In this document: piece by piece, positions 7,179-61,574 of the stretch | Layout of the letters: the number at the start of each line of letters is the position of its first letter | Position numbering within the stretch: the stretch's first letter is position 1 | From: Obrimoposthia wandeli | Taxonomy: Eukaryota | Direction: 5' to 3' | DNA: 64,000 nucleotides | Assembly (NCBI GenBank): GCA_977020255.1 | Contig: CDROCS010000636.1 | Coordinates: 1 to 64,000 of the forward strand | Position numbers and translations under genes: made by a program | The notes under the pieces: model-generated | Databases searched by the model: none | Told to the model about the DNA's origin: nothing | What the model saw: the letters and a program-made list of their open reading frames with translations, nothing else

Positions 7179-7196
7179 TGGTGCCCCGAGTGAGGA
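7179..7196 (+). promoter_or_regulatory. Primer-binding site, most similar to the complement of the elongator tRNA-Met 3' end
   Basis: TGGTGCCCCGAGTGAGGA, 8 nt after the LTR end. Its reverse complement ...CCTCACTCGGGGCACCA resembles metazoan elongator tRNA-Met 3' ends as I recall them (...CCTCACACGGGGCACCA). Confidence 0.75.
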
Positions 7197-7224: not shown

Positions 7225-8330
7225 GAATAAGTTTCAGATAATTGAGGAATAGAGTTTCAAGGTAAATAGAATAAGTTCAGATATTGAGAATAAGTTTCAG
7301 AGAATAGAGTAAGTTTCAGGTAAAATAGAATAAGTTCAGATATTGAGAATAAGTTTCAGAAAGTAGAATAAGTTTCAGGTAGAGAATAAGTTTCGGAGAT
7401 GTAAAATGAGAATAAGTTCAGATGGCTGAGAATAAGTTTCAGATAATTGAGAATAAGTTTCAGGTAAAATGAACAAGTTCAGATATTGAGAATAATTTCA
7501 GAGAAATAGATAAGTTCAGATATTGAGAATAAGTTTCAGATAATTGGTAAGTTTCAATTAAATAGAATAAGTTCAGATATTAAGAATAAGTTTCAGATAA
7601 ATTGAGAATAAGTTTCAGCAGAAGAAGATATAAGCAAATTTAGATAAGAATTTGATAAGTGTTGAGAAATCAGTAAGATTTGTTCCTCGAAGTTAAGATT
7701 TGATAAGTTTTGAAATCAGTAGATTTGTTCCTCGAAGTTAAGATTTGATAAGTTTTGAGAAATCAGGTGGGTGTTCCTCGAAGTTAAGAAAATTTGATAA
7801 GTTTTGAAATCGAGTAGAATTTGTTCCTCGAAGTTGAGAAATTTGATAAGTTTTGAGAAATCGAGTAGATTTGTTCCTCGAAGTTAAGAATTTGATAAGT
7901 TTTTGAGAAATCGAGTAGATTTGTTCCTCGAAGTTAAGAATTTGATAAGTTTTGAGAAATCGGTAGATTTGTTCCTCGAAGTTAAGAATTTGATAAGTTT
8001 TGAGAATCGAGTAGATTTGTTCCTCGAAGTTAAGAATTTGATAAGTTTTTGAAATCGGGTAGATTTGTTCCTCGAAGTTAGAATTTGATAAGTTTTGAGA
8101 AATCGAGGTAGATTTGTTCCTCGAAGTTAAGAATTTGATAAGTTTTGAAAATCGGGTAGATTTGTTCCTCGAAGTTAAGAGTTTGATAAGTTTTGAGAAA
8201 TCGGGTAGATTTGTTCCTCGAAGTAAGAATTCGATAAGTTTTGAGAAGTCGAGTGGATTTGTTCCTCGAGTCCAGTAAATTTGATAAAGTGAGAATCGAG
8301 TGGATTGATACTCGAGTGTAATTAATTGAA
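7225..8330 (+). repeat. 5'-leader tandem arrays (gagaataagtttcag-type at 7225-7640; ~48-bp unit at 7670-8290)
   Basis: The 48-bp unit gtagatttgTTCCTCGAAgttaagaattTGATAAgttttgagaaatcg; 12 intact TTCCTCGAA copies between 7683 and 8222. Confidence 0.9.
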
Positions 8331-8657: not shown

Positions 8658-10375
8658 TTGACTGAATTATTTGGTGACATAAACCCAGAAGAATTTGAAA
8701 TTGCCAATCCAGTAGTGATTGAAGAAGTTCAAGCATTGAATAATATTGAAGAAATAGTTGAAGATATAGTTGAAAATATGGCTCACCCAGGAGCTCAAGC
8801 AGATATTAATGCAGGAAATAATGTAGGTGACATGAATGCCGAACAGTTGGCACAAGCCTAAATGCGACGTTGAGAACCCAATTTTTCAGGATCATTGCAG
8901 ATTACAAAGTTTAAAGGAGATGAGGAAAGTATTTGTGACTTCCTCGCAGAATATTCGAGTTGTGCAGATGTTCAAGGATGGAACGATAAAGAAAAATGTG
9001 TCCGAGTACAGGCACACTTAACCGGATTAGCACTTGAAGTGTATAAACATTTGACAGAAGCAGAACGTTTAGACTGGCCAACGTTGGAAAATGCTTTTAT
9101 TGGAAAATTGGTATTAGGAGACTTAGCCAAAGTAAATAAGCGACTCATGAGAGAACGGAAACAGAAACATGATGAAGGCGTGAATGAATACGCGTATGTT
9201 TTGAGAACCTTGGCCGCAAGAGCGTACCCAAGAAGAATAATGAGAAATCAGGACGGTAATCCTGTAGCTCAAGAAGCACAAGTAGCGGAAAATGACCGGA
9301 ACCAAAATGAAATGGCAGAGGTTTTGTTAGATATATTTAGAGGAGGATTGAAAAAGGATATTAAAGTGTTATTAGCAGTATCGGATACAAATGATTTTGA
9401 TAACGCCGTGCGAAAGGCGAGAGAGATTGAGAAAAATATAAAAATAACGCAGTATTGGCAATTTACGCAATGACTGCAGGTGACGACGATAAGACAAAGG
9501 TCTTCGTGAATAAAACAGAACTGAGTAATTTTCAGAATCGAAATTATGGACAAAATAAGTTTGAAAAAGTAGATGAATCCAGTAACGGAAATAGAGATAA
9601 TTTCCGAAGTAGGAATCGAGATGATTCCAGAGGTAGAAATAATAGTGAGTCTTGGAACAGGAATCGAGATGATTCAAGAGGTAGAAATGGTAATGATTCG
9701 TGGAATAGAAATAGAGATGATTCCAGGAATAGATTTAATAGAGATAATTCAGGAAATCGCCAACCTTGGAGAGGAGACGATAGGAATTATAACGCAAACA
9801 GAGGAGAGCGAAGTGACTCTCGATTTGGAAATAATACAGGAAGTAGTGACGGAAGATTCAATAATCGAGGAAGCGGTTTTGAATCGAATTTCCGAAGAAA
9901 TGATTTTAGAGGACGATATGATAATAGACAGAATAGTTGTCGAGTACAGTTCGCAGATGAACAAAATAAGATAGATATTCGAGGGAGAATAATGTGTTAC
10001 ACGTGTAAACAAATGGGTCACTATTCGAGAGACTGTACGAGGAGTAAAGAGTTCGGAACTAACAGATTTGGAAATAATAATTTCGGTAATAATAATTTTG
10101 GAAACAATTATAGAGGATATAATTCACCTCCGCCATGGAATAGAGGTGGTGGATATACTCCACAGCCATGGAGACCGAATAATCAGTATACAGATAGACA
10201 ACAGTCACCAGGTAGATACAATAACTATGCAGACAGACAGCAAGGAGCTGAGAGATACAATAATTACGTAGGACAGCAAGGAGCTGAGAGATATAATAAT
10301 TCCGGTAGATATAATAATAATAATGTTGACAAGACAAATAGTCGTGAGTTCGCCGAAACCGAAAGGAAATTTTAG
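8658..10375 (+). CDS. gag: Gag (capsid domain, R/N/G-rich linker, CCHC zinc knuckle), frameshifted
   Basis: FKGDEESICDFLAEYSSCADVQGW..K...HLTGLALEVY retrotransposon capsid pattern; CYTCKQMGHYSRDC (CX2CX4HX4C) at 9994-10036. The true start may lie upstream (~8440). Confidence 0.85.
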
Positions 10376-10907
10376 TTATGTAAACGATGACAGCGATAGG
10401 AATCGCGAGACCGAGCTTCGACGCGAAATAGATTTTGAGGATAGTGATAGTAAATTTGAACGAATGTTGGGAATAATTAAAGATTCACCACATACAAAGA
10501 TGGCGAATTCATCTACGTTGTCGAAACAAGAAAAAGGTCTACACTCGAGAGAAGAGATGAATGATTTAATGAATAAAATATTAGAAGCGTATGAGACACC
10601 AATAGAGAAAACGTGTAACGCACAACCTATGACTGAGCATGTAGAAGCAGCGAGAAATGCTACGAGTATGGAAAATGTAAAAAAGATAATTAGTGAAGCT
10701 AAGGAGACGTTAAATCAACCGTTAGATGAAACGAGTGAAGCTCCAGAAGTTTTGGCCAAATTGCAAACAATTAAAGTGCACCGATTGGAAGAAGTGCGAG
10801 CAGAATTGGTTAAACATAGTCATGATAACTTGGGTTACAAAGAAGTACCACGAGGACTATTGAAAGGTTATGGTCGTTACGTACAGAGATCAAACCAAAA
10901 AGGAACG

Positions 10908-11139
10908 ATGAAAATTTCGCTTCGATTAATTTCCGGACAGATAATACATGAAAAACTTAACGTGTATCAAACAATGAAAACGATTCGGAAAAAAGTTGGC
11001 CGAGAAACTTGAAATTGATGGAATGAATATGTTGTTCCATTATAAAGGGAGATCACTAGATGATGAGGACGTACCAGTCGAGTGTGGATATCCGATAGGA
11101 AATGAATTAGAGGAAAAAATTGATGTCATCACTGTAGGA
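10908..11139 (+). CDS. Ubiquitin-like domain in the polyprotein, split by a +1 frameshift at ~10998
   Basis: Removing one G joins MKISLRLISGQIIHEKLNVYQTMKTIRKKV-AEKLEIDGMNMLFHYKGRSLDD, which aligns without gaps to ubiquitin [52 protein letters not shown]. No C-terminal GG. Confidence 0.7.
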
Positions 11140-11819
11140 CGTCAAGAGTTAGTAGATAATGAAGGATTAACGGAGATATTAAATTCTGCGTTGGAAATGA
11201 TAAAAACGCCTATAGAAATTTTAGACAGTTCAAGCGAAAGCGGAGATAATGATGTAGCTGAAGCTTGGAACAAGACATCCACACCAGAACCACGTAGCTG
11301 AATTACAAGACATGAATTTAGAAAATGAGTTGACAACTCCAGTGGTCGAGGTACCGCCAGAACCAGATATAATTCAAATCAGACAAGATGAAGTCACGGA
11401 TACAGCTAACCAAGTGAGACAAAAACGAAAACCGTAACCCAACTAGTAGGAGAAGACGAAATCTCCGAAATTGTAGATTTAGATTCACCAATTTGGCATG
11501 CTGCATACAAAGATAGACAAGCGGAGCAGATGATGCGACAAAGTGAAGAGATTGGCCATGAAGAAGGACCAAGTCAAGAGATACAGTATAATGGTGAACC
11601 GTATGATCCAGGAGAGAATCAAACTGAGTATCAGTATTTTCGAAGAGGACCTGGAAGACCTAGAAAGGACGGAAGTATATTACGAAATGTTCTAACTGCA
11701 CCACAAACTGATGAAGAGAGACATCTAAGCATTGGACAGTTAGCAGCGTCATTAGAGCAGTATAGTGCAGAGAGGAATGAAGATATCAGAGGTGATATGA
11801 ATTCAGAAGCTCCAAGTAG

Positions 11820-12200
11820 TAAAGATATACTTACGGGAATTCTCAGGCAAGTGAAGCCGAAGTTGTTCAAAATGTACAGAGATGAAACAACCGATATAAC
11901 AGACAATTTGACTAAAGCAGTTAGATCACAGATGTCTGCAGTAAAGAGAATGACCGCGAATCATGTATACCATGCATCGATAGATAGATTTTACGACGGT
12001 GAAGTTTTAGCGAGATTATGTGGAAATCAGACTACAAATAAAAAGTTAATTACAGCAATCACATATCTATGTTTCCAATTGACGGAACGAACGAGCCAAC
12101 CTCACGAAGTCAAACAAGGAATAAATGAAGCGATGTATTTGATCGAGAATGTATTACAGAGACGAATTGACGAAAACGGAGGTTGGGCAAAATTAAGTGA
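11820..12200 (+). CDS. Putative Bcl-2-like domain in the polyprotein
   Basis: YLIENVLQRRIDENGGW resembles BH2 (TYLNDHLEPWIQENGGW in Bcl-xL); KLITAITY sits at BH1-like spacing upstream; the NWGR motif is degenerate; a hydrophobic segment follows. Confidence 0.55.
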
Positions 12201-12312
12201 CTACGCTAAAACCATTGTGGAAATGAACGAAGACGATGACGAACAATGTCATGAGAATCGTCAAAGAGAAAATAAACAATACCGTCCGAAAGAGAGAAAC
12301 AATCAACCAAAT

Positions 12313-14180
12313 ATGTCCACAACAATGATGATGATGTTAGTAATGTTCATGGGAATGCAACAGGAATCAGGACTGATAGCATACGACTGTAGCATACCAA
12401 AGATGGGACAAAAGTATTCACTGCTTGACAGCGAAGACTGTCCAGAATCACAACCGTCAAAATTAGAAGTTAAAGGTGTTGAAAACTACTTTGTGTATCA
12501 GGATGTTGATAAAGTACAAGTAGAAGTGAAAGAATGTTCAATCCATTCAAGTTATCACGAATTCTATTGTGGCCATAGAAGTTTTATGTCGGAAATCACA
12601 CCTACCACACCGTACAAAGCACATAAGGTTTTGCCGAGAGATTGCGAAGACGCATTTCGAACGGGAACAATAGAAGTAGACAAGAATTACAAACCTGATG
12701 TAAAAATTGGAGTAAGACGATACGAAACAGTCACGAGAGTCGGACAACGATGGGCTGATGGATCTTGTGACGGAGGAACAAAAAACGTGCGTGGAACCAA
12801 AGTAACAGAGTTAGTAATGGACGTAACTTACAAAATCGAATTAAAAACATGGACCGCCAATTTTGATAAAAAGACACAACTAATGATGAAGTATCCAGAA
12901 TGTAAAATGACAGATACATCTTGTTTTACAGGCGAATCCACAATTGTGTATCACGTGAATCCGAAACAATGCTCTTTAGTATTTTTGAAAGAGATTAGCT
13001 TTAACAAAATAAAAGGATTCCTGTATAATAAAGATGGAGAAGGATTCCTGTATAATAAAGTTGGAAAAGGATTGCTAAATGAAACAAGACCAATTCCAAT
13101 GACAAAGACACCTACACTGTTAATGGCAACATCAATAGAAGAAGGATTGATATTTATTAAAAAGAGAAACAAAGCGCGATGCGGAATGACTGTTAGTACT
13201 ACAAACTATCCAGCAATAGTTTTGTCCAAAGAAGCAATAGCATTGGCAGAAACCAAGCTAAAACCAAAAAATATGCAGCTACACACGTATTTTAATAATA
13301 AAATTGATTTCTATTATCATAAAGGATTGATGCAAATGGAACAGTTATATCGGATGATGATCGAAAGAGATTGCCAGCTAAACAAAGAGATCGTAAGAAC
13401 AAAGTTAGCATTAGCTATTACGAATCCAGACATGGTAGCACCATTATTACCCTTGGATGAAGGAGTATTTGCTAAAACCATGGGAGAAGTATTGTATACT
13501 TACAAGTGTAATAAAGTAGAGGTACAGTTGAGAAAAACAGATCGATGTACGAGTGAATTGGCAGTAACGTATAATTTAAAAGATCTTTTGTTGAACCAAT
13601 CACGAGAATGATACTTCCAAAAGACACTCCAACTAAAGAAATCAGCTGCTCTAATATAATGGCACCTGAATATCAGATGACGAATGATCTATGGATAACG
13701 TTACCTGATCGAAAGCCAACGCAAAACCCCAGCGATGATAAAAATGACGAATCTTAAAGGTAAAATGAAATTCGAAGCGGTGGAAAATATGGAGAACGCA
13801 GGATTGTACAATGAAAAAGACTTAAAAGCGGCATGGAACGAAATAATGTTTCCAGTAAAAAGAGCCAGAGTACTTACGGAGATGGTACATCGAGCATTAC
13901 CGCCAGGAGCTAGATATGCGAATTTTGATATGTTGTTATCGCCAAGTCATTTCAAGGAAGCAGCACATCAGACACTTAGAAAGTTGTGGGGGAAATTCCT
14001 TGTTTTAGGACAATTATTTTCGGGTATCATAGGTATTTATGTTATAATTAAATTTGTGCAGGTAATTATAGCCCAGGTGTTGTCTACGTATAGTTTATAC
14101 AGGATAACCGGAATCACCTGGCAACTTATAATTGGATGTTTTCCATTTTTAGCAAAATATCTAATGCACCATCATCACGA
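12313..14180 (+). CDS. env: Envelope glycoprotein of chuvirus (Jingchuvirales G)-like type, two frameshifts (~13595, ~13730)
   Basis: Internal signal-like MMMMLVMFMG then LIAYDC; Cys-rich ectodomain (YCG, GSC, CG..TTNYP, LY..MI..DCQL...KLALA..NPD, GEVLY.YKC..VEV..R.T..C..EL.V); C-terminal TM pair FLVLGQLFSGIIGIYVIIK...G.TW..I. Confidence 0.8.
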
Positions 14181-14529
14181 GAACGAGTTGCAAGCCCTCA
14201 AGAAGGAACAACACCAAACGAGAACCATGATGCGAGAACCAAAAAACTATCGAGACGACAACGACGACGATAATGATAGCCCAGGAGTATATGCAAAGAT
14301 ACCAGGAAAACCAAAGATTCCGTTACCAGACAAGGAAGAAGTGGCGTTAAACCTATATCCAATGAAGGAACTAAAGGAAGAGAAGGAAAAGTTCAAGAGA
14401 GGCATCTTAATGATAAGATGGCCTAAAGTGAGCTACAGTGAGATTCCACAAGCAGAGGGAAAAGACAAAAAAGATAATTCCAGAAGAATTCTGAAGTCTA
14501 GGATATCAAATGAGAATCCAAATGCTCCA

Positions 14530-14830
14530 CCCCAAGTAGCAGTAACATTGAACGGAAGAGAATATCTTGCCGAAGTTGATACTGGATCCGCAGTATCAGT
14601 ACTGAGTAAAGAAATCTTGTCATCAAAAGAATTAAGAGAAGTATGTCCTAGAAAATAGACATTTGTTAACGTAAATGGTACAGATGTAGTGTCGGAAGGA
14701 ACACTGAAATGTTCATTGAATATCGATGGAAGAGCATTGCAGTTAAATGCTAGAATATTCACAGATTGCGGTAGTCCAGTCATGATTGGGATGGACGTAA
14801 TAAGAATGTTTGAAGGAATAATTATACTAC
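14530..14830 (+). CDS. Retropepsin-like aspartic protease, copy 1 (in-frame TAG at 14656)
   Basis: LAEVDTGSAVSVL (DTG at 14578), VNG flap-like segment and IGMD; same frame on both sides of the stop. Confidence 0.8.
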
Positions 14831-15059
14831 CAAACAACAAGAGTTATAAGAATGACAGTTCAGTGAGAGAGATAAAAATGTTGAGAGGACCTATAGTCGA
14901 AAAGGAAAAATACACTACGTTCCGTATGGGAAATTTGTACCAAGACAAAAAACAGGAAGCGCTAGTAAAGTCGATACTTCACTACAAAAACGTAAACCTC
15001 GGACCACAAGAGATGACGAGGAGAAAAATAACATATGTGAATCTGTCAGAAAAGGATCC

Positions 15060-16050
15060 CATGAGATTCGAGAAAAAGAGACGAAATATATTAGAACTGT
15101 ACTATTCAAAAGAAATGGCACGTAAAATGGCAAGATCAGGTTTAGAAATGTTAAACGCGACAAGCAGTTATGGTCATGAGATAGTAGTACGATGCGTATG
15201 GTGTAGAGTAAAGTTTAGAGAGTGGGAAAAGAATGAAAACCCAATGAGACGTCATAAAAGAGATGCACCAAATTGTCCATTTCTTTTGAAACTGAAAACG
15301 TCAAACGTACCAGAAATCCAAAAGGGAAAAGCACCCGATTTCGATTACAGCGACGAGATTCCAAAAGGAAAATCAGCTCTAATAACAGGTAGAGTAATAA
15401 CGAATAGTCGAATTGAAGACATATTCGAAGTTATGCGAGAAGTGAACGAATGTGACGAACAGTATCGAGAAATAACTTTCGAAGATCCAAGACTTAAAAA
15501 ATTGGCAAAAAGGGACTTTTGCTATAAAAAAGGATGGTAAAGACGTAATTAAATGCCACAAGTGTAAAAAAGAACGAATTATCGACAGATATACTCTTGA
15601 GCTACCTAAGAAAATTTTACATCATGAATTTTGCGAATTTTGTACTTTTAAAAACAAAATAAAGCAAAAAGAACAGAAAACCGAATGTATAATCGAATAC
15701 CAAATCACACGGAAAGAGATTTTGGCTCAACAAGACACACCGGTAGTGTCATTCGTGAGAAGGTTATATCCAAAAGAAGCAGAAAGAATCAGAGATTTGG
15801 TAGAATTAAAAATAAAAACTACGCGAAATGGATACGGGACAATTTTTGAATTACTAAAAGATAAAGATGACAGTACAATTGAAACAAAAGAGAAAGAGTA
15901 CATAAATGAACTAGAATACGTACTAGAAGATCCGGAATGCGCAGTTTGCATGGTCAACAAAATAGAAGTTGCCTTTCTACCATGCGGACATGTAAGAACA
16001 TGTCGGAGATGTGCGAATGAAATGGTATCATGTCCGATTTGTCGAAGAAT
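15060..16050 (+). CDS. IAP-like module: BIR1, diverged BIR2 and C3HC4 RING
   Basis: BIR1 CVWC-X16-H-X6-C (15193-15276). BIR2 LAKRDFCY..KDVIKCHKC-X18-H-X6-C (15502-15643), split by a frameshift in an A-run at ~15530 and then in frame with pol. RING CAVC...FLPCGH..TC..CA....CPICR (15938-16042). Confidence 0.85.
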
Positions 16051-16159
16051 AATAGATCGACAAGTGAGAAACATTAGATTTCACTATCCAAACAAAGGAA
16101 GTGGACCGACAGAGTGTAATAATTCGATAAATACAATATACCATATGGGAAATATAAAT

Positions 16160-19100
16160 GGAGCACAGCGACCAGCAGCTATCATTAGAGTAAATAATTT
16201 AAGAGTAAAAGCCTTAATTGATACAGGTGCTGTAGCTTCGATAGTAAGTGAAGACTGTTTGACAGAGGAACAGAAACGAACAATGGCAGAACCAGATGAA
16301 TTCTTGGTATCGGTCAATGGAGACCCTGTAAAAGTGACGGGAATATTACCATGTACATTTATAATTGGACGTAATACGATCACTATACCAGTTAGAATCA
16401 TGAAAGAATGTCCTGAACCTACAATTTTAGGAATGGATGTACTATCACAACTTAAAGGGATAAGTATTGATTTACAAGATCCAAGATTGAAGGATAGCAC
16501 ATCAAACAGACAAATAAACCAAATTGATGTAATTATAGAGAATCCTATAAAAATCGGTAAAAGATCACAATTTCTCATTCAAGGTCACACATTATCGGAA
16601 GATAAAGGACCAGTTGTGTTCGAACCATCACGAGATTTCATAGAGAAATACGAATTACCAGTTGTGAGTACAGTATGCCTGATCGAAAACCACAAAATAC
16701 CAGTTAGACTGATGAATACAACCAACAATGACATTCTATTATACAGAGGAATGAGGTTGGGAAAGATAGCACAAATGGAGAATCCCACCGTGTGTGCTAT
16801 GAAACTCGATAAAGATACGAATGATTACGAAGAGATAGTAATCCAATCAGAAAGACTGACAACTAGAGAAAAGAAACAATTACTTGATCTAATACATAAA
16901 TTTCCGAAAGTAATTGCAAAAAATCCATATGACATAGGAGAAACACCTGTCATAAAACATACAATACCACTGACAGAAGATAAAGTAGTCAGAAGAAGAC
17001 CATATCGAGTACCATTACAGTTACAAGATGAAGTAAAAAGTCAGATCGAAGATATGTCTAAAACAGGAGTAATTAGACCGAGTTTTTCGCCATTCTCAGC
17101 ACCTGTGGTGTTGGTAAAAAAGAAGGATGGGAAAATGAGATTCTGTATAGATTTCAGAGAACTGAACAAGATCACAAGAAAAGATGTGTATCCATTACCT
17201 AGAATCGAAGAGATGCTCGATAAATTGGGTAATTCAGATTATTTTACAACATTAGATTTGCAAAGTGGATACTGGCAAATCGAGATAGAGGAAGAGGATA
17301 AACACAAAACAGCCTTTTCCTGCGGAGATGGATTATACGAATGCGAAAAGATGCCATTCGGACTGACAGGAGCTCCAGCAACATTTCAGCGTTGCATGAA
17401 TTTTGTACTCGCATCGTGTGCAAACACGATGGTTTATATCGATGACATAATAATATTTTCGAAAACGTTCGAAGAACATTTAAAAAATCTTGAAGTTGTA
17501 TTTAAAAGACTGGAAAACGCTAAATTAAAAGTTAAACCTACAAAATGCGAATGGGCTAAAGAGCGAGTAACATTTTTAGGACATATAGTATCGAAAGAAG
17601 GCATTCGACCTGATCCGGCAAAGATCGAGAAAGTAAAAGCGCATTTAGCGCCAAAGACTGTTAAGGAGATACAGAGTTTTTTAGGTCTTGCGAATTATTA
17701 TAGACGATTTGTTGAACATTTTTCAGATATAGCAACACCATTGAGAAAGTTGACGAGAAAAGATGAGAAGTTCATATGGGGAGAAGAAGCACAACAAGCG
17801 TTCGAACATTTAAAAGAAAGACTGATAAAAGCACCAATATTAGCGTTTCTAGATATAAACCGACAATTCATACTCATGACAGATGCAAGTAACTATGCTG
17901 TAGGAGCAGTATTGGGACAAGAGGATGACGAAGGAAGAGAACACGTCATCGCGTATGCGAGTAGAGGATTAAACAGAGCTGAAAGAGGATACTCTGTTAT
18001 CGAAAAGGAATGTCTAGCCATAGTGTATTCATGTAGACAGTACAGACACTATTTGCTAGGACAAAAAGTATTCCTGTATACAGATCACAAACCACTACAG
18101 TTCTTATATAAACATAGAGATGAGATGAGTAGATTAAACAGATGGTTTCTAAAATTGGCCGAATTCGATCTAGAAATCCGTTATAGAACCGGAAAGTCGA
18201 ACGGCGGCGCAGATTGTTTGTCGAGATTGACAAATGTAGACGAGAAAGGAAACATAATTCCAGAAGAAGATGAAACCAATGACCAAAAAGGAGAAGCAAA
18301 TCTACTGACGATTTTGCTAAAGACGGGTAAAATAGACAAAGAGATCATCAAAGAACAGAAAGAAGATGAAGAACTGAGTCTAATCAAAGAATTGTTGGTG
18401 AAAGGAGACCTAAACGATGAAATGACGAAGAAATACTCGATAAAAGAAGGAATCTTGTATATTGTCAATAATGTCGGAAAGATAGTAGTAGTAATTCCGA
18501 AGTCATTGAAAACAGCAGTGATGATCCAGTATCACGATGGAACACTAGGAGGACATCTGTCAGGGCGAAAGACAATAGCCAGAATCAAAGAGAAGTACCA
18601 TTGGGATGGTATGGAAGACGACATAAAACAATGGTGTAAACAATGTAAAGTATGTTTAACCAGAAAAGACACCGGAACTCGTACTAAAGTTCCACTGAAA
18701 CCAATGCCAGTTCCTTTGGCACCAATGGAATTCACAGCGATGGATATATTGGGACCATTGAGAGAATCAAGTAAAGGAAACAAGTACGTCATAGTATTTA
18801 CGGACTTACATGACGAGATGGGTAGAAGCATATCCCATGCAGAACCAGAAAGCTGAAACAATAGCGCAGATCTTAGTGGAAGAGATAATATTTCGATACG
18901 GAGTGCCTAGAAAGTTGTTAACGGATCAAGGTAAGAACTTCACTGGAGAAGTAATAAAAGCAGTATCGAAGATATTCGGAATCATGAAGTTACAAACTTC
19001 ACCATATCACCCACAAACAGATGGTCTAGTAGAAAGGTTTAATAAAACTTTATGTATGATGGTACAATCCTATTGCTCAGACAAGCAAGAGGATTGGGAT

Positions 19101-19560
19101 AAATATTTACCTTCATGTTTATATGCTTACAGGAATTCAGTTCGAGAGGCGACGGGTCACACACCATTCTATCTGATGTATCTCAGACAGAACAATATGC
19201 CGATGGATCTGGAGTGGACCAAGCCAACATCTCAGTATCTAGAAACTGAACAATACATTGTCGTCATGAAGGAAAGATTACAAGATGCTTGGACCAAAGC
19301 CGGATTGAAGTTGAAATTCAATCAAGAAGGTTACAAGGAACAATACGACAAAAAAGCAAAACCACATGAATTTAGAGTCGGAGATCAAGTGATGATATTT
19401 TATCCAGTCATCGAACCAGGTCTATTGTTTAAACTTCATAGACCATACAAAGGACCATACAAGGTGATCCAGACAACCTCAACAAATTTGAAAGTAATCA
19501 ACGAGGAGAATCGGAACAAGGAACCGATGATTGTACATGCAAATCGATGTAAATTAGTAC
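16160..19560 (+). CDS. pol: Pol: protease 2, reverse transcriptase, RNase H, integrase with GPY/F motif (frameshift ~18810)
   Basis: LIDTGA (16220); RFCIDFRELN, LDLQSGYWQI, YIDD (17435); TDASNYAVGAVL, EKECLAIV, TDHKPL; HHCC zinc finger; MDILGP, TDQGKNF, YHPQTDGLVERFN; YKGPYKV. Confidence 0.97.
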
Positions 19561-19745
19561 CAAATAAAGATAATGCATCACGATATGAGTTAAGATCACA
19601 GAAATTGAAGCCAAATACCAATACCATTAAACTTACACGAATGGTAAGTGATCGGAACTACATAAACATGATGACGAGTGGTAGCGAGGAAAAACCAGCG
19701 AGAATTGGTATGCTCAGAATGAAGCACCAAGAGGAAAAGGAAGTA

Positions 19746-20712
19746 ATCCGACACATCGCACCACAAGAGATATTAGAAGAAGATGAAGAGATAATAGTTG
19801 TTTTCGAAAAAACACAACCAACAGATGTGGCTAAAGAAGTCATTGTGAAAGATGCACTGACAAACGAATTTCTGTGCGAACTTAGAGTGTCATACTACGA
19901 CGGAAATACATTAATCGCAGCACTATATCAAAACTCCAATGTGTTTACGACTGAGAAAGTGATAATCGAAATCACATTGACACCAAACATAGTTGCATGG
20001 CAGAACTATGACAGTACTGAAGCAGGACTAGCCAGTCAGGAAGAAAAGGAACCGGCCGGTGGTCACATACTGCATGGTACACCAAAAAGACTCAAACAAG
20101 AATACCACGATGTAATAATGGTATTACGTAATTCACATGGGAAAAGAGATATCATGAGAGTTCATTTAATCGACGCAGACACCGAAAAGATAATTTGTCA
20201 GATGGACACCAAATACTTTGACGGAAAGACAATTGTATGTTGTATACCAGAATCTCACCGGTTAGACACAGATCAAACGGAAGTATCTGTAAGGTTGAGC
20301 GTAATAGAAGGATTTCATTCGCCAACCCAACCGGAAGTGACCAACAATAAAATCATCAAAGCAACGGCAGAGTTACGCATTGACAGCGGATACCGGAAGT
20401 GGGAAGCTAAAAATAAAAAACCACAAAGAATCAATATGATCCGAGAACAAGTGACCAACTCAATCCAGCCAAAATATCATGCTGAAATAGTATCATCCGC
20501 GCCAAGTGTGATTACATCGATAAACGACGAAATTATAATTTTACTAAAAAATCGATGGCCGTCATCAACCGAGATACGAGTAAATTTAATTAATTATGCG
20601 AAAACACCGATATCTAAGCTGAATGTTACCTATTTCGATGGATTATCCATCATGGGTAAATTGGAAACAATTGTCATGTGCTATGGAGCACAGTTCCAAG
20701 TTGAGATACTTA
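19746..20712 (+). CDS. Three tandem ~80-aa beta-rich repeats, possibly TIG/IPT (Ig-like) domains, after integrase
   Basis: Repeats share I...P......(D/E)(E/V)I(I/M)(V/I)...N......V...........Y(Y/F)DG.(T/S)(L/I); Y(Y/F)DG at 19893, 20214 and 20631. Confidence 0.5.
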
Positions 20713-20912
20713 AAGATAGCGTAATACCGTATCCGATTCACAAATACGAAGGGGAAATCAATCCAATTATTCTAACCCCTTCATTAATTTCAGTTCAGAC
20801 AGACATACCAGAATACCCTTCGAGCGAGTCTAGTCAAGACAGCGAACCGGAAAGTAACGATACAGAATAAACAGAATCCGAAGATAACATAATAGAGCGA
20901 TTCGGAAGAACC

Positions 20913-21659
20913 ATGGAGGTTGAATTCGCTAAAGAGAACAGAAAAAGACAAAACATAGAATTCGTGAAACAGAATATACAAGAAAGACGAATTAAATCTG
21001 CAGAAGAAACCGAGTCGGAAGAAGACTCAACAAAGGAACAGACATCAGAGACAAAGATGAATATCTCTCCAGCAATACGAATGCTGAGAGGAAAGAAACT
21101 GGCGAAACTATCCAACATCGACGAACAGATAGAGAAGAGATTAGAAAGACTAAAACTCGAAGAGTCAGAATTATTGCCACCAATGAGCGAGATCATTCCA
21201 GATAAGTTATACCTCGGAAATGTGGAAGATGCAACAGATGAAAAGAAACTGTTGGAACAAGGGATAACATACGTGATCAACGTTACAATGAATCACAAAT
21301 CACAATATCAGACAATCAGAGCTATGACATTAAGAGTAAAAGACTCAATGGACGCTAATCTTCTCGAATGGTTCGTAGAAACAAACGAAATACTTCACAG
21401 AGAACTCCGAAACCAAGGAAAAGTGTTGGTACATTGTCAGAAAGGAATTTCTCGATCAGCAACTCTAGTATTAGCATATCTAATAAAGACTAGACGAATG
21501 CAGGTACTAGAAGCGCTGAAATACCTACAGGAGAGAAGAAGTATTGCAAACCCAAATCTTAATTTTTTGGGACAGTTGGCAAATTACCAACTTCTGTTGC
21601 AAGAACAAAGACGGATAGACGACATTCCTGAGGATCCAAAGGAAAAGAATTTCCTCTAA
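20913..21659 (+). CDS. Dual-specificity protein phosphatase, catalytic motif intact
   Basis: MSEIIPDKLYLG, GITYVINVT, V.D, VLVHCQKGISRSATLVLAYL (HC at 21432), NPNLNFLGQL. Confidence 0.92.
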   Translation: MEVEFAKENRKRQNIEFVKQNIQERRIKSAEETESEEDSTKEQTSETKMNISPAIRMLRGKKLAKLSNIDEQIEKRLERLKLEESELLPPMSEIIPDKLYLGNVEDATDEKKLLEQGITYVINVTMNHKSQYQTIRAMTLRVKDSMDANLLEWFVETNEILHRELRNQGKVLVHCQKGISRSATLVLAYLIKTRRMQVLEALKYLQERRSIANPNLNFLGQLANYQLLLQEQRRIDDIPEDPKEKNFL

Positions 21660-21668
21660 GCATTATCG

Positions 21669-22931
21669 TTGACCGGGTTATTCTTAGCCGGAGTCGACAA
21701 AATTACACAGATAATGCCAAAAGTATTTTTATGTCATCCAGGAGATATAGATACTGCTGGATTAAAGTTCCACAGTATCAACCGAGTAATCAACATTGTT
21801 GAAGTCGGAAACGAAATAATCAGTCTGTGTCAAAATACTGAAGATGACACCACTCGATACATACATGCTTCCAATCGAGAGATAAACGATGCACAACAAC
21901 ATCTGACGAAATTGACTCAAACCATCCAAGCCGAAGTCACAGAAGGAAACGGCGTTCTGATATATCAGAAAAAAGGTACAATGTTAGCGCCTACCATAGG
22001 TGTATCCTTGTTGGTAGAGTACCATGGTCACACGCCAGAAGAAGCGATGGTCTACATCAAACAGAATAGACCAGATACGGAATTCAAACCGTTACTCGTT
22101 CGAGAAATAGAGAAGTACGCCGAAAAGAGGAAGCAACAACGAGAAACAAATGAAGCTACAACAACAGTGCCCAGCTTTCAATACCAAAGATTGCTAGCGA
22201 TAGGCTTGTTAAGTTGTCTAATGCCGATAACGGGAGCACAAGAGATAGGCTCCAACCACGGAAATAGTTCCTGGTTCAACGAAATCCACAACTACACCAT
22301 ACAGTACCATACGCCGGCACTGATGATGCTATTAGTGTTGTTAGGATTAATTGATGTGTGGATCATCCGAAAATGTCTCCGATCTATGAGAACCGACAGT
22401 AAAAGATTTCAGTTTGTAAAGATGAAAAGACCAAATGGACCGACGAACAAAGTGCTTGTGTATCTAGACGAAAGGATCGAGGATAACATAGTAAATGAAG
22501 CGATATTTTATCCACAAAACAGAATACTGAATCAATTCCGAATAGATTACGAAGCTGACCGACAGCGCACACTTGACCGAATATCAACAACATTCGCCGG
22601 ATGCAAGCGAAGAAAACGAATTGTAAAGGAAATAAAAAAAGATGCTGATACAAAAGGACCGACGTATATATTCGACGGCGATGTCATCAAAACACGTGAG
22701 TATGGAAGTAAGAGAGTGATAATTGAAACGATGGAAGGACATAAAACATGCTTGTCCGCTAAAAATGGATTCGGAAAGTTGATGATACAAGGTAAACAGG
22801 TACAGTTGATTATCGGGAAAAATGGAATCGAGGAGATGTCAAAACAACGACAGACAACAAAACGATCCAATCAGAAACAGATATCTCTCAAACGAATGAT
22901 AATTAAAACCCTTTGCAAAAGGTCAGTCTAG
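21669..22931 (+). CDS. ORF with a catalytically dead DSP-like domain, a small signal+TM segment and an unknown basic domain
   Basis: ITQIMPKVFL..INRVINIV..GVLIYQKKGTMLAPTI..L..Y.G.T.EEAM.YIKQNRP parallels the upstream DSP but lacks the HCxxGxxR Cys and Arg. Hydrophobic stretches LLAIGLLSCLMPITGA and LMMLLVLLGLIDVWII follow. Confidence 0.6.
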   Translation: MTGLFLAGVDKITQIMPKVFLCHPGDIDTAGLKFHSINRVINIVEVGNEIISLCQNTEDDTTRYIHASNREINDAQQHLTKLTQTIQAEVTEGNGVLIYQKKGTMLAPTIGVSLLVEYHGHTPEEAMVYIKQNRPDTEFKPLLVREIEKYAEKRKQQRETNEATTTVPSFQYQRLLAIGLLSCLMPITGAQEIGSNHGNSSWFNEIHNYTIQYHTPALMMLLVLLGLIDVWIIRKCLRSMRTDSKRFQFVKMKRPNGPTNKVLVYLDERIEDNIVNEAIFYPQNRILNQFRIDYEADRQRTLDRISTTFAGCKRRKRIVKEIKKDADTKGPTYIFDGDVIKTREYGSKRVIIETMEGHKTCLSAKNGFGKLMIQGKQVQLIIGKNGIEEMSKQRQTTKRSNQKQISLKRMIIKTLCKRSV

Positions 22932-22955
22932 GCCCTGTGCACCGTTGCACAAGGA

Positions 22956-23621
22956 TTGATCTACGGAGTAGTAATTGGATTAGTACTACAAGCCATGCCA
23001 ACCAGTAAAGCTGAAATGATGACATTATACGAGTATAATCTACATTTGAGAAATCTAGACAACACCCTCGAAATAATCAAGACGTCCCACAGTAAAGCCG
23101 TAAGGATCATGTGTGTAAAAGGATGTCCAGGACGAATGTGTATAGTTCCAGCGACCGAAATGAAAACACTTAATGGACATTATGGAGTTAGTATTGTCAC
23201 ATGTGAAGACTACACATTTGGACAAACTAAAATAGTACTTCTCAGTGACATGTCCAACCAAAGTGCACACAAATTTAAAATATTAACCATCAAGAGTAAA
23301 TGAATACCAGCAGTACGTTATGGTATTCTAGAATTGGTTAATCCAATACTCGCACTGATCATTGGATTCATAATATTAATATTACTCATCTTGTTTTGTT
23401 GTACAAAGATAGAGTTGAGATCAAAAAAGAAACGTCATGATCTTGCAAGACGAACAGGTCAAATGAATTTACAAAAATTCAACACAAGTATACCAAGACC
23501 ACCATTCCTAGATGAACCAGCACCGGAGTACCAGCCAACGATATATGAACATATCGAGGAAAGACCGTACTATATGAGTAATTTGAGTTGTTTCATTGAA
23601 ATTCCTGAGTTTAGGAATTGA
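22956..23621 (+). CDS. Putative type-I membrane protein (signal, Cys-containing ectodomain, TM, Tyr-motif tail); in-frame TGA at 23301
   Basis: LIYGVVIGLVLQAMPTSKA signal-like; ILALIIGFIILILLILFCC TM followed by RSKKKR; tail contains TIYEHI. Confidence 0.5.
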
Positions 23622-23636
23622 ACGATCATAGGAATC

Positions 23637-24854
23637 ATGCTGATCATACAAATTACCACTACCAAGGCTAGTTATGAGATCATGATCAGTAAATGGAGAC
23701 AAGATGTAATACGGGCATTATACATAGAAATCCCTCTATTAAAAACAAATCACGTAGTAGACATTCATCTACAGACGTCAGCAACCGACAATATCGATCA
23801 GAAATTGTATGTCATCCGACAGGTCAGAATAAAGATCGACCAAAGTACACCTTACTACAAACTGATATTATTCAATCACGAAAGAGTGTTATACCTACGG
23901 ATAACGATATCAAAAAGGAAGCGGATTATCCAAAGTATCCGCACAAAGTCATTAATATTGCCTAGAGATGAGCGCATCTGGAAAATTGTCGACAGGATTA
24001 TGATCACAGGTAGACGACGTAAAGCCGTATGGAATTCCGTTAGAATATTTTTCAGATTACTAGAAACTGACAAAGTAACAGTATCGTGTCCCAATCCAGA
24101 TGGCGGAATCAGATTCGAAATCCAAAACCAAATGTTAGTACCACATTTTGATACAGAATGTCTGTGTAATCGAATTCCCAGTAACACTACAGAGACCTCG
24201 ACCATAATCATGGTAATAACAGGTGAAATATTCTACATAACTCTAAGATACCAGAACCGTCGATTTCGTAGGTCCGGTATAAGTATCAAACCCAGGAAAA
24301 TCATTCCCAAAAAACCAATCCTAGTCAAAAAGAAGGCAAAGGTAAACGAAAGTAAACACCATTCCAAAAAGCCGAAAGTGATCAGAACAAAGACAGAAGC
24401 GAAAGAAAAAGAGCTAAAATCCAGAAACCAAAGTACAGTTATTAAGAGGACAAGAGTGAGGGGAACGATCCCACTAGATCCCAAAAATTATTTCCAATCC
24501 AAAATAATAATACCTGTTCTACCAGAAACAAAACACCCAAATCCACGAATTTTTAGAAAATCGGACATAATACATGGAAACCGATCAAAACCCATGGAAA
24601 TGTCATTCGAACCGACAAACAACAAAATGAAGTATGAGTATCAATCATCAGATAGCAGAGTAACAGCGGTCAATGCTCTAATTGGAATGGCCGTAGTGTC
24701 AACAGCAGTGGTTCTATTGACAGTCGTGTGCGTGAAAGGCAGTCAAGTATGCCCAAGAATACGGCGAAAATGCGAAGGATTGCGATGCTGTGACATACCC
24801 ACCATGGAGGAAGTGGAATTGCGACCCTTACCTCCGCCTCCCATCAAGATATGA
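23637..24854 (+). CDS. Putative type-I membrane protein, unknown function
   Basis: 405-aa ORF with an N-terminal hydrophobic segment, Lys-rich region, TM ALIGMAVVSTAVVLLTVVCV and a Cys/polyproline tail. Confidence 0.55.
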   Translation: MLIIQITTTKASYEIMISKWRQDVIRALYIEIPLLKTNHVVDIHLQTSATDNIDQKLYVIRQVRIKIDQSTPYYKLILFNHERVLYLRITISKRKRIIQSIRTKSLILPRDERIWKIVDRIMITGRRRKAVWNSVRIFFRLLETDKVTVSCPNPDGGIRFEIQNQMLVPHFDTECLCNRIPSNTTETSTIIMVITGEIFYITLRYQNRRFRRSGISIKPRKIIPKKPILVKKKAKVNESKHHSKKPKVIRTKTEAKEKELKSRNQSTVIKRTRVRGTIPLDPKNYFQSKIIIPVLPETKHPNPRIFRKSDIIHGNRSKPMEMSFEPTNNKMKYEYQSSDSRVTAVNALIGMAVVSTAVVLLTVVCVKGSQVCPRIRRKCEGLRCCDIPTMEEVELRPLPPPPIKI

Positions 24855-24977
24855 TAAGTCAGAGGAGGTTGTAGATAAATTAGTGTGTGAAATATGTAGA
24901 AATATCTAGAAGCGATTGTACAAATAGTAGAAATATATAAAACTCATGTAGAAATTAATCATCATCATGTATTTAGA

Positions 24978-25277
24978 ATGTCCGAAGAATGCCCAATATG
25001 TTTGGAAGATCTCACCGAACGAAGAACAAGACCCGAAACCTGCAACCATTTACACCACGAGGAATGTTTATCAACATGGATCAGAACTTATGGACAGTTC
25101 GGACATCCAACATACCCTTGTTGCCCTGTATGCAGAAGACAATTCGCAAGATTCATCATGTTAGAACCCAACCAAGAGGATGTATATGTACAGGTGGTAT
25201 TCTGTTGGAAGAATTTCGGAGAGTGTTGGTGTTACTACTGTTTGTCAGAACGACAAAATCCGACCACTTTTGTGTAA
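24978..25277 (+). CDS. RING-H2 zinc-finger protein 1
   Basis: CPIC...CNHLHHEEC..W...CPVCR plus a C-terminal CWK....CWCYYC cluster. Confidence 0.85.
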   Translation: MSEECPICLEDLTERRTRPETCNHLHHEECLSTWIRTYGQFGHPTYPCCPVCRRQFARFIMLEPNQEDVYVQVVFCWKNFGECWCYYCLSERQNPTTFV

Positions 25278-25337
25278 ACATCACACAATCACCAGTCCTC
25301 AATCGAGCCCAAATTCAACATCAACCCTCTCACAGTA

Positions 25338-25643
25338 ATGTCTGGAGAATGTTCCATCTGCTACGAGAGCATCGTGGACCTCTACACCAAGCCCAACAAC
25401 TGCGACCACCTTTTCCACATCGAATGCCTCGAGACGTGGATTCCCATCGCCAACAGCAACAATCCCCTCGACTTCCCAACCTGCCCGATGTGCAGAGCGA
25501 CCTTCTCAGTGCACTACGTGTACAACCAGGACAGCCTCCAAGCAGTGGTACCCATAGTACACTGCTGGAAAACTATCTGCGATTGCTGGTGCTCGTTCTG
25601 CGTGGAGGAGCGACGCACAGGCCAGCCCAACTCCCAGCAATAA
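25338..25643 (+). CDS. RING-H2 zinc-finger protein 2 (paralog of 1)
   Basis: CSIC...CDHLFHIEC..W...CPMCR plus the same CWK....CWCSFC cluster. Confidence 0.87.
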   Translation: MSGECSICYESIVDLYTKPNNCDHLFHIECLETWIPIANSNNPLDFPTCPMCRATFSVHYVYNQDSLQAVVPIVHCWKTICDCWCSFCVEERRTGQPNSQQ

Positions 25644-25984
25644 TCGAAGGTAACTTTCTGACTTGAACGTGACATCATGAACTACCCTGTGTATCGCATA
25701 CCGCGATAAATTAGCTACCATAATTGTAATCATAATTGTATAATCTTGTGAAACTGTAAAATGACCATTACCATTTTTATGTATGTTGTTTAACTGAAAT
25801 TGTAATTATTATACTGAAATTCTAAAAGACAATTTTTTATGCCTAGTGTGAATGTGTAAACATGCCTAAAATCGGAACAAAACTCGGTAGGATTAAAAAA
25901 CTAAGGGTTCGTTTTGAAACTAGAATTTTAAACTTTATAAATTAACGACGAAAACAGTCGAAAAGGAATCATTATTTTGTGCAG

Positions 25985-26482
25985 ATGAAGTGTTCAGTCT
26001 GCCTGGAGAAAATTTGGACGGCATCGGCATCCCCTGTCGGCTGCCGTCACAAATTCCACGAGTCGTGCCTCTATACTTGGGCCCGACTTCGACCCGAAGG
26101 CCACGTCACATGTCCGTTGTGCCGTGCTCCCTTCGCGGAGTGGACACTACAATGTCGCGGACGCCACAAGGGCACTCATTCGCTCACCAGCTGTATTGGT
26201 GGCGAACATTACCAATGCCCCAACTGCATCGCGCGCCGTCGCGACGCGAAACTCGCCCTCCGCGAAAAATGGCGATCAACCCGTGACTGCCGCTCATGGC
26301 AACGTGGTCGCCAAATATGGATCCAGAACCGCGGGGTCCACGGGCGGTACACGACCCTCTTCCACCCCAATCAGCACCTCAGCATGCCCCAGCAGATGGC
26401 CCTGTTCGAAGGCAGGACTCCATCATATCCAGACCTACCACTGGAGCAGGTCTTGCTGTTCTTAAAAGACAGAAACAATTGA
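25985..26482 (+). CDS. RING-H2 zinc-finger protein 3
   Basis: CSVC...CRHKFHESC..W...CPLCR plus downstream C....H.QCPNC; ATG at 25985. Confidence 0.85.
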   Translation: MKCSVCLEKIWTASASPVGCRHKFHESCLYTWARLRPEGHVTCPLCRAPFAEWTLQCRGRHKGTHSLTSCIGGEHYQCPNCIARRRDAKLALREKWRSTRDCRSWQRGRQIWIQNRGVHGRYTTLFHPNQHLSMPQQMALFEGRTPSYPDLPLEQVLLFLKDRNN

Positions 26483-26746
26483 CAAATCCTCGACAATCAT
26501 CCCTTGATCCTTTCCCTTGTGTAATTTTTAGTTTGACGTAGTAATAATGTATAAATTGAGACTTGTTCCAAATTATGCATTATAATTCCCACTAAAAACC
26601 GGGTTTTGGAAAAAAATTTTTTGGGCATGTTTGATGAATTGAATGACTGATTTTTGTAGGGATGGACCTAAAATCAACAGCCAGAGGCTTATAAGAGTAA
26701 AATCGATACGTTCCGGGGACGTAACTTTTTTGGAACCCCCGAGATA

Positions 26747-29034
26747 TGTTAGATTTAGGAATTGAGAAATTATTAAAAAATTAAATAATTTATACTAAAA
26801 TAAAATCCTTGAAAGCAAGGTTGAAAATTAAATATTTAAAATTAAGTTAAAATATTAGAGAATAAAATCAGGGGTAAATATTAATAGGACCACGAAGGTC
26901 GTGTGTAATGCGTTATATATAAGGTTAAGTTAATTAAGTAAAAGTGCAAAAAAGAAATCAGCAAACAAACTAAGAAAAAGGAAAGTCAAAAAATTAATCA
27001 AATCAAAAAGAAATCCAGGAAAAGAAGAAATTATTGTAAGTTGCGATTATTGATTAAATCGTTTACTTTCTTTTTTCAGCTGCCAATATTGAGTGACAGG
27101 AAACGTCACAGCCAAAATTTCAATTTCTATATTTTCAGCTGTCTAGGATAAGTGGCTTTGAGTGACAGGAAACGTCACAGCCAAAATTTCAATTTCTATA
27201 TTTTCAGCTGTCCAGGATAAGTGGCTACAGCGCTCTAGCCTAAGTGGGTAAGAAATTACTATAAGAACAATTTTCTTTAATCAAATAATTGCAGAAAAAC
27301 AAATAATTGAAGTCGAATATAATTGAAAGGTTGGAAACAAATAATTGAAGTCGAATATAATTGAAAGGTTGGAAACAAATAATTGAAGTCGAATATAATT
27401 GAAAGGTTGGAAACAAATAATTGAAGTCGAATATAATTGAAAGGTTGGAAACAAATAATTGAAGTCGAATATAATTGAAAGGTTGGAAACAAATAATTGA
27501 AGTCGAATATAATTGAAAGGTTGGAAACAAATAATTGAAGTCGAATATAATTGAAAGGTTGGAAACAAATAATTGAAGTCGAATATAATTGAAAGGTTGG
27601 AGACAAATTGAAGTCGAGACAAATTGACAGACAGACCAACATATCTCCGACCAAATCATTAACCGAGAGTCCAAACAGAGCCAACCCTCTGACAGCCCAC
27701 GGATCCAGATCTCGGGAAAAAACTCTAGGATTGGATAGGTGAGACGACTCATATAAACACAAATCATTGTCCGCAGTTGACAATTAGGTTTTATACAAAT
27801 CATTGTCCGCAGTTGACAATTAGGTTTCACGCAAATCATTGTCCACAGTTGACAATTAGGTTTCACGCAAATCATTGTCCACAGTTGACAATTAGGTTTC
27901 ACGCAAATCATTGTCCGCAGTTGACAATTAGGTTTCCATATAAATTTTCATACAAATCATTGTCCGCAGTTGACAATTAGGTTTCACGCAAATCATTGTC
28001 CACAGTTGACAATTAGGTTTCCATATAAATTTTCATACAAATCATTGTCCGCAGTTGACAATTAGGTTTCACGCAAATCATTGTCCGCAGTTGACAATTA
28101 GGTTTCCATATAAATTTTCATACAAATCATTGTCCGCAGTTGACAATTAGGTTTCACGCAAATCATTGTCCGCAGTTGACAATTAGGTTTCACGCAAATC
28201 ATTGTCCACAGTTGACAATTAGGTTTCCATATAAATTTTCATACAAATCATTGTCCGCAGTTGACAATTAGGTTTCCCACAAATCATTGTCCACAGTTGA
28301 CAATTAGGTTCCATATAAATTTTCATACAAATCATTGTCCACAGTTGACAATTAGGTTCCATACAAATCATTGTCCACAGTTGACAATTAGGCTTTTATA
28401 CGAATCATTGTCCACAGTTGACAATTCTCGTCTGAATTCATAACAATAGAAAGTTACTCAAATTAAAGAAAGCTTTACCCAACACGATCTAAGTTTAAGT
28501 TGAAAGAAAGTTTTAAGAGAGTTGTGTTATAAATTAACCAACCTAGAAAGAAGATTTGCATTCGCACCTTTATTGTCATAAGAATAAAGGTTTAACCTCA
28601 AAAGTTCAAGCCGATAGCAAAGTTAAATTGTTGAGAAATCTGTAACGCGAGCTTATTCTCGAGTCAGAAGAATAACTCTAAAATCTCGATCACCCCGAAC
28701 GTAAAATCGATACGTGGTTCATCCCCACTTGTTGTAGAGACTTACAGAAGTCTTAGGAATTTTTACTATACTTTTTAGAAAATACGTACATAAACGTATT
28801 GTTGTGTTCAGTTTAGTGTGCTACCAATAAACGATTTCCTACATTAGAAAACGTTGTTTTAAACCTTCAGACCAACAGACGTCTAACCAAACACCTTCAG
28901 ATAAGAAATAGAGATAGGCAACCATAACACTAAGTAGGCCACGACCAACTTTAAGACCTGCTTCTATTCGAACTCACGTTGGGGCCCTCCGCACACAAGA
29001 GGATCTATACAAGTCTCGTATAGAAACCCCAACA
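26747..29034 (+). repeat. 3' LTR (2288 bp)
   Basis: TGTTAGATTTAG...AAACCCCAACA; holds 8 near-identical 38-bp units (27301-27604) and ~17 units of a 36/48-bp array (27760-28430). Confidence 0.93.
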
Positions 29035-33505: not shown

Positions 33506-33526
33506 TCACCCTCTCCCCTCCCTCCT

Positions 33527-61541: not shown

Positions 61542-61574
61542 CTGAATAATGATGATAATTATGTATCACAATTG

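Follow-up and report, generated by a model that had tools for sequence, protein, structure and literature searches.

The 3′ end of the internal region of a giant LTR element carries a cassette of three RING-H2 genes, and genomic copies that have lost the intron between the second and the third gene argue strongly that this cassette is spliced. The window, the whole 64,000-nt stretch of Obrimoposthia wandeli DNA analysed here, contains a 24-kb copy of this element, which is an env-bearing, Burro-like member of the gypsy lineage with env in frame and has the RING cassette as its cargo. The reading we favour, to which we attach somewhat better than even probability, is that of a 3′ accessory region in which three predicted RING-H2 ligases and a likely overprinted gene (ORF-X) would be expressed by alternative cis-splicing from the LTR promoter. 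The original prediction, which saw three genes each preceded by a splice acceptor, was incomplete in that it overlooked both the intron between genes 2 and 3 and the overprinted frame spanning the genes. Giant env-bearing gypsy elements were thought to pack their cargo into one polyprotein, to which the present family would add a spliced and separately expressed region.

Table 1. Positions in the window of the element, its cassette and the associated splice signals
Feature	Position	Strand	Description
5′ LTR	5064..7170	+	TG...CA; AATAAA at 6958
Primer-binding site (PBS)	7179..7195	+	8 nt behind the LTR
Candidate major splice donor	7259..7267	+	AAG/GTAAAT; exon ends at 7261; first of several in a tandem array
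Giant polyprotein gene	8778..24854	+	putative single frame of ~5,350 codons
Acceptor 1	24955..24976	+	branch-point-like TTAAT (24955-24959) plus TAG; putative use
RING gene 1	24978..25277	+	99 aa; RING-H2 and Cys4 tail
ORF-X exon 1	24989..25649	+	+2 frame covering genes 1 and 2 and the 60-nt spacer between them
Acceptor 2	25324..25335	+	C-rich tract plus CAG, no clear branch point; putative use
RING gene 2	25338..25643	+	101 aa; RING-H2 and Cys4 tail
Intron	25650..25984	+	GT-AG, 335 nt; begins 6 nt past the gene-2 stop and ends directly before the gene-3 ATG
RING gene 3	25985..26482	+	165 aa; RING-H2, Cys4 tail, Arg-rich helix, C-terminal extension
ORF-X exon 2	25985..26286	+	+2 frame of gene 3, 99 codons open
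3′ LTR	26747..29034	+	aligned blocks 87-95% alike between the two LTRs

The host element and its polyprotein

The element has the LTRs, the PBS and the PR-RT-RH-IN order of Ty3/gypsy elements, and a pattern spanning the LTR-PBS junction has 5,258 matches in the genome and none in the control. All 40 DNA candidates scored for the element are 96-100% alike, as are all 150 candidates scored for gene 2 (98-100%). Between subfamilies, the LTRs are alike over roughly their first 200 and last 340 nt, the middle being hypervariable and containing tandem arrays. No target-site duplication was found when the flanks of the window copy were compared (CATTT versus AACGT), and no purine run that would represent a polypurine tract precedes its 3′ LTR.

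Several further observations concern the LTRs and their surroundings. The LTR middle (5260-6800 and 26950-28700) is swapped wholesale between subfamilies while the LTR ends and the internal region stay alike, and a TATA-like motif ~170 nt into the LTR is retained in many subfamily copies. The AAATCGATACGT motif opens the conserved 3′ block of the LTR (6834-6847) and recurs at 26698-26712, about 50 nt before the 3′ LTR, where the polypurine tract was not seen. Short TGTAGAAA repeats are conserved between the end of the polyprotein gene and gene 1 (24860-24955). Read depth drops to about one-sixth over 25856-27085, that is, gene 3 and beyond, showing that copies differ much more in gene 3 and at the start of the LTR than elsewhere in the element. 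One copy (L178) has an insert in its 3′ LTR that by eye resembles a fragment of mitochondrial cox1.

In the window copy, the polyprotein frame is interrupted by several stops and frameshifts. Four sister copies are broken at other places, with open frames of up to 3,286 codons and none unbroken, which argues for one polyprotein ending at 24854. Its domains, as detected by Pfam, are in order Gag-CCHC, a Monjiviricetes-type fusion protein representing the env (PF24664, E 8e-53 and 4e-27, upstream of PR), BIR (PF00653, E 3e-10), RING, PR, RT, RH, IN and two DSP phosphatases, and the protein ends in a C-terminal hydrophobic segment. Weaker features are a Bcl-2-like stretch (E 0.17, below the cut-off) and a weak poxvirus 2L_N match, while a ubiquitin-like candidate has no match in Pfam. 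The two dual-specificity phosphatase domains behind the integrase (20913-22931) are apparently part of the polyprotein, and the second looks degenerate. The closest relatives of the RT-RH region are 56-61% alike, two of them carrying env before RT. In P0168 and P0169, which are 58% like the element's RT-RH, a fusion-protein env stands ahead of PR-RT in one frame, and the same architecture thus exists elsewhere.

Three RING-H2 genes

The three ORFs are intact, each scores above the Pfam zf-RING_2 cut-off with a C3H2C3 ligand pattern and, judged by their sequences, the genes are paralogues. When 22 natural copies of the three genes are aligned, the RING ligands are conserved, as are the Trp, Pro and linchpin Arg positions, which we take to have the same functional roles as in known RINGs. 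The Cys tail originally noted in genes 1 and 2 is present in both but is not limited to them, since in this alignment gene 3 has it too (C-x5/6-C-x-C-x2-C); the gene 3 of the window has Tyr at the second Cys position of the tail. Gene 3 is the most variable between subfamilies, with about 45-68% identity.

A model of the gene-2 product (pLDDT 80) consists of a RING plus a β-hairpin, with a low-confidence Cys4 tail (pLDDT about 60), while the gene-3 model (pLDDT 53) was too poor for structure search. Structure comparison of the gene-2 model with the PDB returned RING domains only (best Z 7.0, rmsd 2.2, 68 aligned) and barely covered the Cys4 tail, and Foldseek against the PDB gave no match at E<=0.001. 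Nine viral models did match at E<=0.001, led by baculovirus PE38, IE2 and CG30 and including giant-virus RINGs, with ICP0 entries at E 0.002-0.01, and small viral RING clusters rank first among the language-model neighbours in Atlas. Homologue searches found none for gene 2 or for the 22-sequence alignment; for gene 1 they found 188 relatives that match the RING part only, and the Cys4 tail is in none of the 150 relatives listed. The three products are predicted ubiquitin ligases. In 5 of 13 gene-3 variants, but not in the gene 3 of the window, the C-terminus is IDLT, which presumably is SIM-like.

An intron between genes 2 and 3

The original prediction of a spliced or trans-spliced cassette, fed from a donor in the leader, stands in part: acceptor 3 is spliced, as ten intron-less copies indicate, but the donor sits behind gene 2. 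This donor (AAG/GTAAC) is found across subfamilies, 305-365 nt before the gene-3 ATG, in 24 of 26 rows, the remaining two being false matches, and the 3′ part of the intron diverges between subfamilies while donor and intron length stay. Among nine matches to gene-3 starts with an altered -3 base, one is the exact exon-exon junction, in a near full-length copy that is 97% like the window. A general junction pattern found ten copies, from several subfamilies, that lack exactly 25650-25984, and none in the control. All ten keep genes 1 and 2 and acceptors 1 and 2. Nine are distinct (two are identical), the gene-3 halves of the distinct copies being 63-92% alike, and for six of the nine an intron-bearing copy is a closer match than any of the other intron-less ones. 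Measured by such pairwise likeness, rather than by a tree, there would have been at least six or seven independent intron losses. Both intron ends share AG, but for losses that recur with exactly the same ends, splicing and subsequent reverse transcription offer the best explanation. From these genomic copies, we regard it as proven that acceptor 3 is real and used in cis with the donor at 25649/25650, and trans-splicing is then not needed at this acceptor. Such genomic fossils prove one splice without recourse to RNA.

Other uses of this region were considered and rejected. In-frame readthrough from gene 2 into gene 3 is not conserved, one lineage having a 1-nt offset. When further partners of the gene-2 donor were sought, 98 matches came up, most of them to another repeat; no element match was seen at 10 of 12 inspected loci, and the element-like rows contain local indels only. 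The 5′ end of the intron (25668-25712) is a conserved block with a small TATCGC/GCGATA hairpin, the arms of which vary, and this block folds no better than shuffles (z -0.19).

ORF-X, a frame overprinted on the cassette

Unspliced, ORF-X starts 11 nt after the gene-1 ATG and encodes 225 aa, ending at 25666. The gene-2 donor cuts it in phase 1 and the splice joins both exons in frame, giving about 320 codons; in one intron-less natural copy (L175), the frame is uninterrupted over 318 aa. Among the intron-less copies, it continues for at least 70 codons past the junction in 8 of 10, and the whole ORF is open in 3. No stop in ORF-X is common to more than 8 of 87 copies, a set that includes up to 29 near-identical sisters, compared with up to 72 for the third frame and 76 for the +2 frame of the polyprotein. 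A T that would create a stop in the +2 frame is common at none of 36 third positions versus 52 of 133 others (p 3e-7), a purging of synonymous changes that would introduce stops. When dinucleotides are matched, the difference is clear for TGA (0/12 versus 14/20, p 1e-4), while for TAA/TAG (0/24 versus 3/21, p 0.09) it is not separable from TpA avoidance, and the polyprotein-tail control leans in the same direction (6/19 versus 25/41, p 0.05). The spacer between genes 1 and 2 is 60 nt long in 36 of 43 copies and has no codon-position pattern (0.164, 0.167, 0.152). On these sequence statistics, ORF-X is probably functional. It has no family match in Pfam or Atlas: the Atlas matches to RING clusters (0.86-0.87) were discarded as off-frame shadow, and its Leu-rich runs were rejected as export signals since they follow automatically from Cys/Trp codons.

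A possible though doubtful alternative is that ORF-X is only a shadow of base composition, cast by C-ending codons and by TpA avoidance, and that the intron serves RNA export, stability or exon definition. This would fit the GC3 of genes 2 and 3 (0.78 and 0.65, against 0.31 in pol and env), the chance of 0.16 that gene 2 has a stop-free +2 frame under its own base use, the stop-poor +1 frames of genes 2 and 3, and the early stops that cut exon 2 short in some lineages (at codon 49 in two copies, at codon 22-24 in six). In one lineage, moreover, acceptor 3 is displaced by 1 nt. Gene 1 seems difficult to reconcile with such a shadow: it is not GC-rich (GC3 0.41), its +2 frame is nevertheless open, with a chance of 0.006-0.03, and divergence at its four-fold sites is half that in the polyprotein tail (0.137 versus 0.277). 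The specific avoidance of TGA and the intron phase, which preserves the frame, also speak for a functional ORF-X. It would be unusual in any retroelement for one coding frame to overlie three paralogous genes and an intron.

Acceptors 1 and 2 and the leader donor

As originally noted, a YAG lies 0-2 nt before each RING ATG (tttAG-a, 24978; cacAG-ta, 25338; gcAG, 25985). In the internal region, 49 of 438 ATGs have a YAG at this distance, and 3/3 would arise by chance with a probability of ~0.0014 if independent, a value that overstates the significance because the three genes are paralogues. The AG is retained in 29, 30 and 29 of 30 near-identical copies, window included (genes 1, 2 and 3, respectively), counts that are uninformative at 98% identity. 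The pattern that collected diverged copies, from which the subfamily's own codons were excluded, had 569 matches, some of them unrelated repeats, and the 70 diverged loci scored comprise 30 delivered with the pattern and 40 picked by eye for diversity from 100 listed. The raw AG counts of 43/46, 46/52 and 26/38 became 43/44, 46/47 and 28/34 after the removal of 11 mis-set anchors by a fixed rule, the gene-3 count being scored at offset 0 or 1. The AGs are thus conserved among diverged copies. For gene 3 this is informative because the surrounding upstream sequence has diverged (agreement with the window is found in 3-63% of copies at positions -40 to -10 and in 74-79% for the CAG). Upstream of genes 1 and 2 most positions are conserved, so that the AG is not distinctive, and here it doubles as the -3 purine of the start context. 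A YTRAY motif occurs 10-40 nt upstream in 41/44 copies of gene 1, 3/47 of gene 2 and 19/34 of gene 3. Acceptors 1 and 2 are conserved, then, and may well be used in splicing.

The leader donor originally proposed at 7261/7262 has a counterpart (MAG/GTRA at that distance, in the variants GTAAAT and GTGAAT) in 19 of 30 leaders, but it sits in a tandem array and is not universal: of the other 11 leaders, five contain a different donor-like site, and in the remaining six no such site lies within 460 nt of the PBS. In diverged copies, the leader region was located in 3 of 20 guessed places. Likewise, the genes are cargo of an LTR element, as was predicted, but a leader-to-RING junction was found in no genomic copy searched. 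The leader is joined to gene 1 in none of 40 variants, to gene 2 in none of the 100 listed of 153 variants (a separate pattern search had no matches) and to gene 3 in none of four candidate copies. Among the latter, L178, which joins LTR sequence to gene 3, was ascribed to deletion and not to splicing, since a GT is absent from the break point in the other LTR of this copy; L180 represents a short deletion of local extent, and L179 and L181 are unrelated. Other donors were also discarded: CAG/GTGGTA inside gene 1 and ATT/GTAAGT at 5342/5343 in the LTR are not conserved, and, by eye, the GT sites that follow the polyprotein stop differ from copy to copy. Four public runs from one sample have flat, DNA-like depth, with no GT-AG skip among 15 joints listed of 353. 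Retroviral leader-spliced RNAs lose the packaging signal; if this holds here, no leader-joined copies are expected, and the rival explanations predict the same.

According to the first of these rivals, which we consider unlikely, the gene 2-3 intron alone is real, and the AGs of genes 1 and 2 are left over from duplication as part of the start context. The genes would be translated by reinitiation from a polycistronic RNA, made from an internal promoter or supplied by genomic RNA, with the start of gene 3 lying 6 nt past the stop of gene 2. Splicing does give gene 3 an A at -3 and this 6-nt stop-start gap, acceptor 2 has no branch motif, and the AG is not prominent in the upstream regions of genes 1 and 2, which are conserved throughout. 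However, acceptor 1 has its YTRAY in nearly all copies, and the ATG itself is no better preserved than the AG (AG 43 versus ATG 39 of 44 for gene 1, 46 versus 40 of 47 for gene 2). Where the -3 position varies it is C in 34 of 40 copies, whereby YAG is kept, although transition bias would also explain this. Reinitiation after ORFs of 100 codons is usually poor without a dedicated signal, which was counted against this explanation.

It is improbable, and less likely than alternative cis-splicing, that acceptors 1 and 2 (at times 3) receive a host spliced leader (SL) in trans, in an operon-like manner, only the gene 2-3 intron being spliced in cis. The cassette does resemble the SL operons of flatworms and nematodes in its close co-oriented genes with an AG just before the ATG (PMC12582326, PMC8629364). 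That the leader donor is not universal and that leader-joined genomic copies were not found would also fit. Burro was described from planarians (PMC6431247, in part), and flatworms trans-splice, their cis- and trans-splicing sharing acceptors (PMC12582326, in part), so that a mixed mode is possible if the host trans-splices. Unlike such operons, however, the cassette lies inside an LTR transcription unit and its one proven splice is in cis. Moreover, there is no AATAAA or ATTAAA between genes 1 and 2 and, before the LTR, only one ATTAAA, inside the intron, and foreign upstream sequence is in none of the 40 listed gene-1 and 100 listed gene-2 variants.

Proposed expression and function

Alternative cis-splicing would proceed as follows. 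The gene-2 donor is joined to acceptor 3 in element RNA that is later reverse-transcribed, as the intron-less copies indicate, and this splice would, on statistical grounds, join the two exons of a +2-frame ORF-X. The leader donor behind the PBS would be joined to acceptor 1, 2 or 3, so that each RING gene has an mRNA in which its ATG is the first; ribosomes are unlikely to scan on to the following gene because of the internal ATGs in genes 1 and 2 (nine and three, respectively). The acceptor-1 mRNA would yield RING1 and, by leaky scanning to the start shortly downstream, ORF-X, much as HTLV Tax and Rex come from one mRNA. The RING proteins might then recruit host E2 enzymes and remove host restriction or silencing factors, in the manner of the viral ICP0, IE2 and PE38.

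Counter-silencing is the likeliest role of the RING products, by inference only, because their likeness to viral RINGs and the IDLT ends echo ICP0, a SUMO-targeted ligase directed against intrinsic defence (PMC3174244, in part). How giant gypsy elements escape silencing at thousands of copies is a question that the cassette touches, and it names four small candidate counter-defence proteins. It is conceivable, but quite improbable, that a gypsy-lineage endogenous virus has independently evolved a full complex-retrovirus regulatory region, in which three ligases from spliced mRNAs would disarm silencing and ORF-X would act like Rev/Rex, shifting spliced to unspliced, packageable RNA.

Comparison with known systems

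Burro (GYPSM1) comprises giant gypsy-like LTR elements of planarians, >30 kb long and in thousands of copies (PMC6431247, in part). The present family shares with it, in layout, the thousands of copies, a length >20 kb, a putative single giant polyprotein with N-terminal Gag, an env between Gag and PR that is related to mononegaviral fusion proteins, a BIR and possibly a BCL2-like stretch, and cargo tied to apoptosis and ubiquitin (same source). It differs in its length of 24 kb and in the DSP phosphatases behind IN, while the dUTPase and ankyrin of Burro were not found in it (PMC6431247, in part). The available part of the Burro account (PMC6431247) describes no downstream three-RING-H2 cassette, cis intron or overprinted ORF. 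Such a cassette is not described in the literature searched, to which the original Burro paper, Repbase and supplements did not belong, and a prior description is possible.

In the best reading, the accessory region works like HTLV-1 pX without being a member of that family. In pX, overlapping 3′ ORFs are expressed by alternative splicing, Tax and Rex sharing an mRNA, and the likeness to pX and to the HIV-1 accessory genes lies in the overlapping 3′ ORFs, the alternative splicing and the two frames per mRNA (PMC3185809, in part). In contrast to deltaretroviruses and HIV-1, the present element belongs to the gypsy lineage, not to Retroviridae, its env lies inside the polyprotein and before pol, its cargo consists of predicted RING ligases with no sequence likeness to Tax/Rex implied, and its leader splicing is putative.

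The ICP0 type of ligase is RING-HC. The predicted fold of a RING followed by a β-hairpin is shared with viral RING ligases (PE38, IE2, CG30, ICP0 and small NCLDV RINGs), whereas the present genes are RING-H2, not RING-HC, and their Cys4 tail sets them apart from the relatives listed. The IDLT end of some gene-3 variants may echo the SUMO-targeted activity of ICP0 (PMC3174244, in part).

Neighbouring sequences

Directly to the right of the 3′ LTR (29224-32862) lie broken ORFs that by eye are protein-primed PolB-like, together with an Endonuclease VII match, and this stretch is probably a Polinton-like element. Elsewhere, the window contains unrelated tandem arrays and a 64-nt inverted repeat (33148-33659, 53962-54329, 61555-62301).
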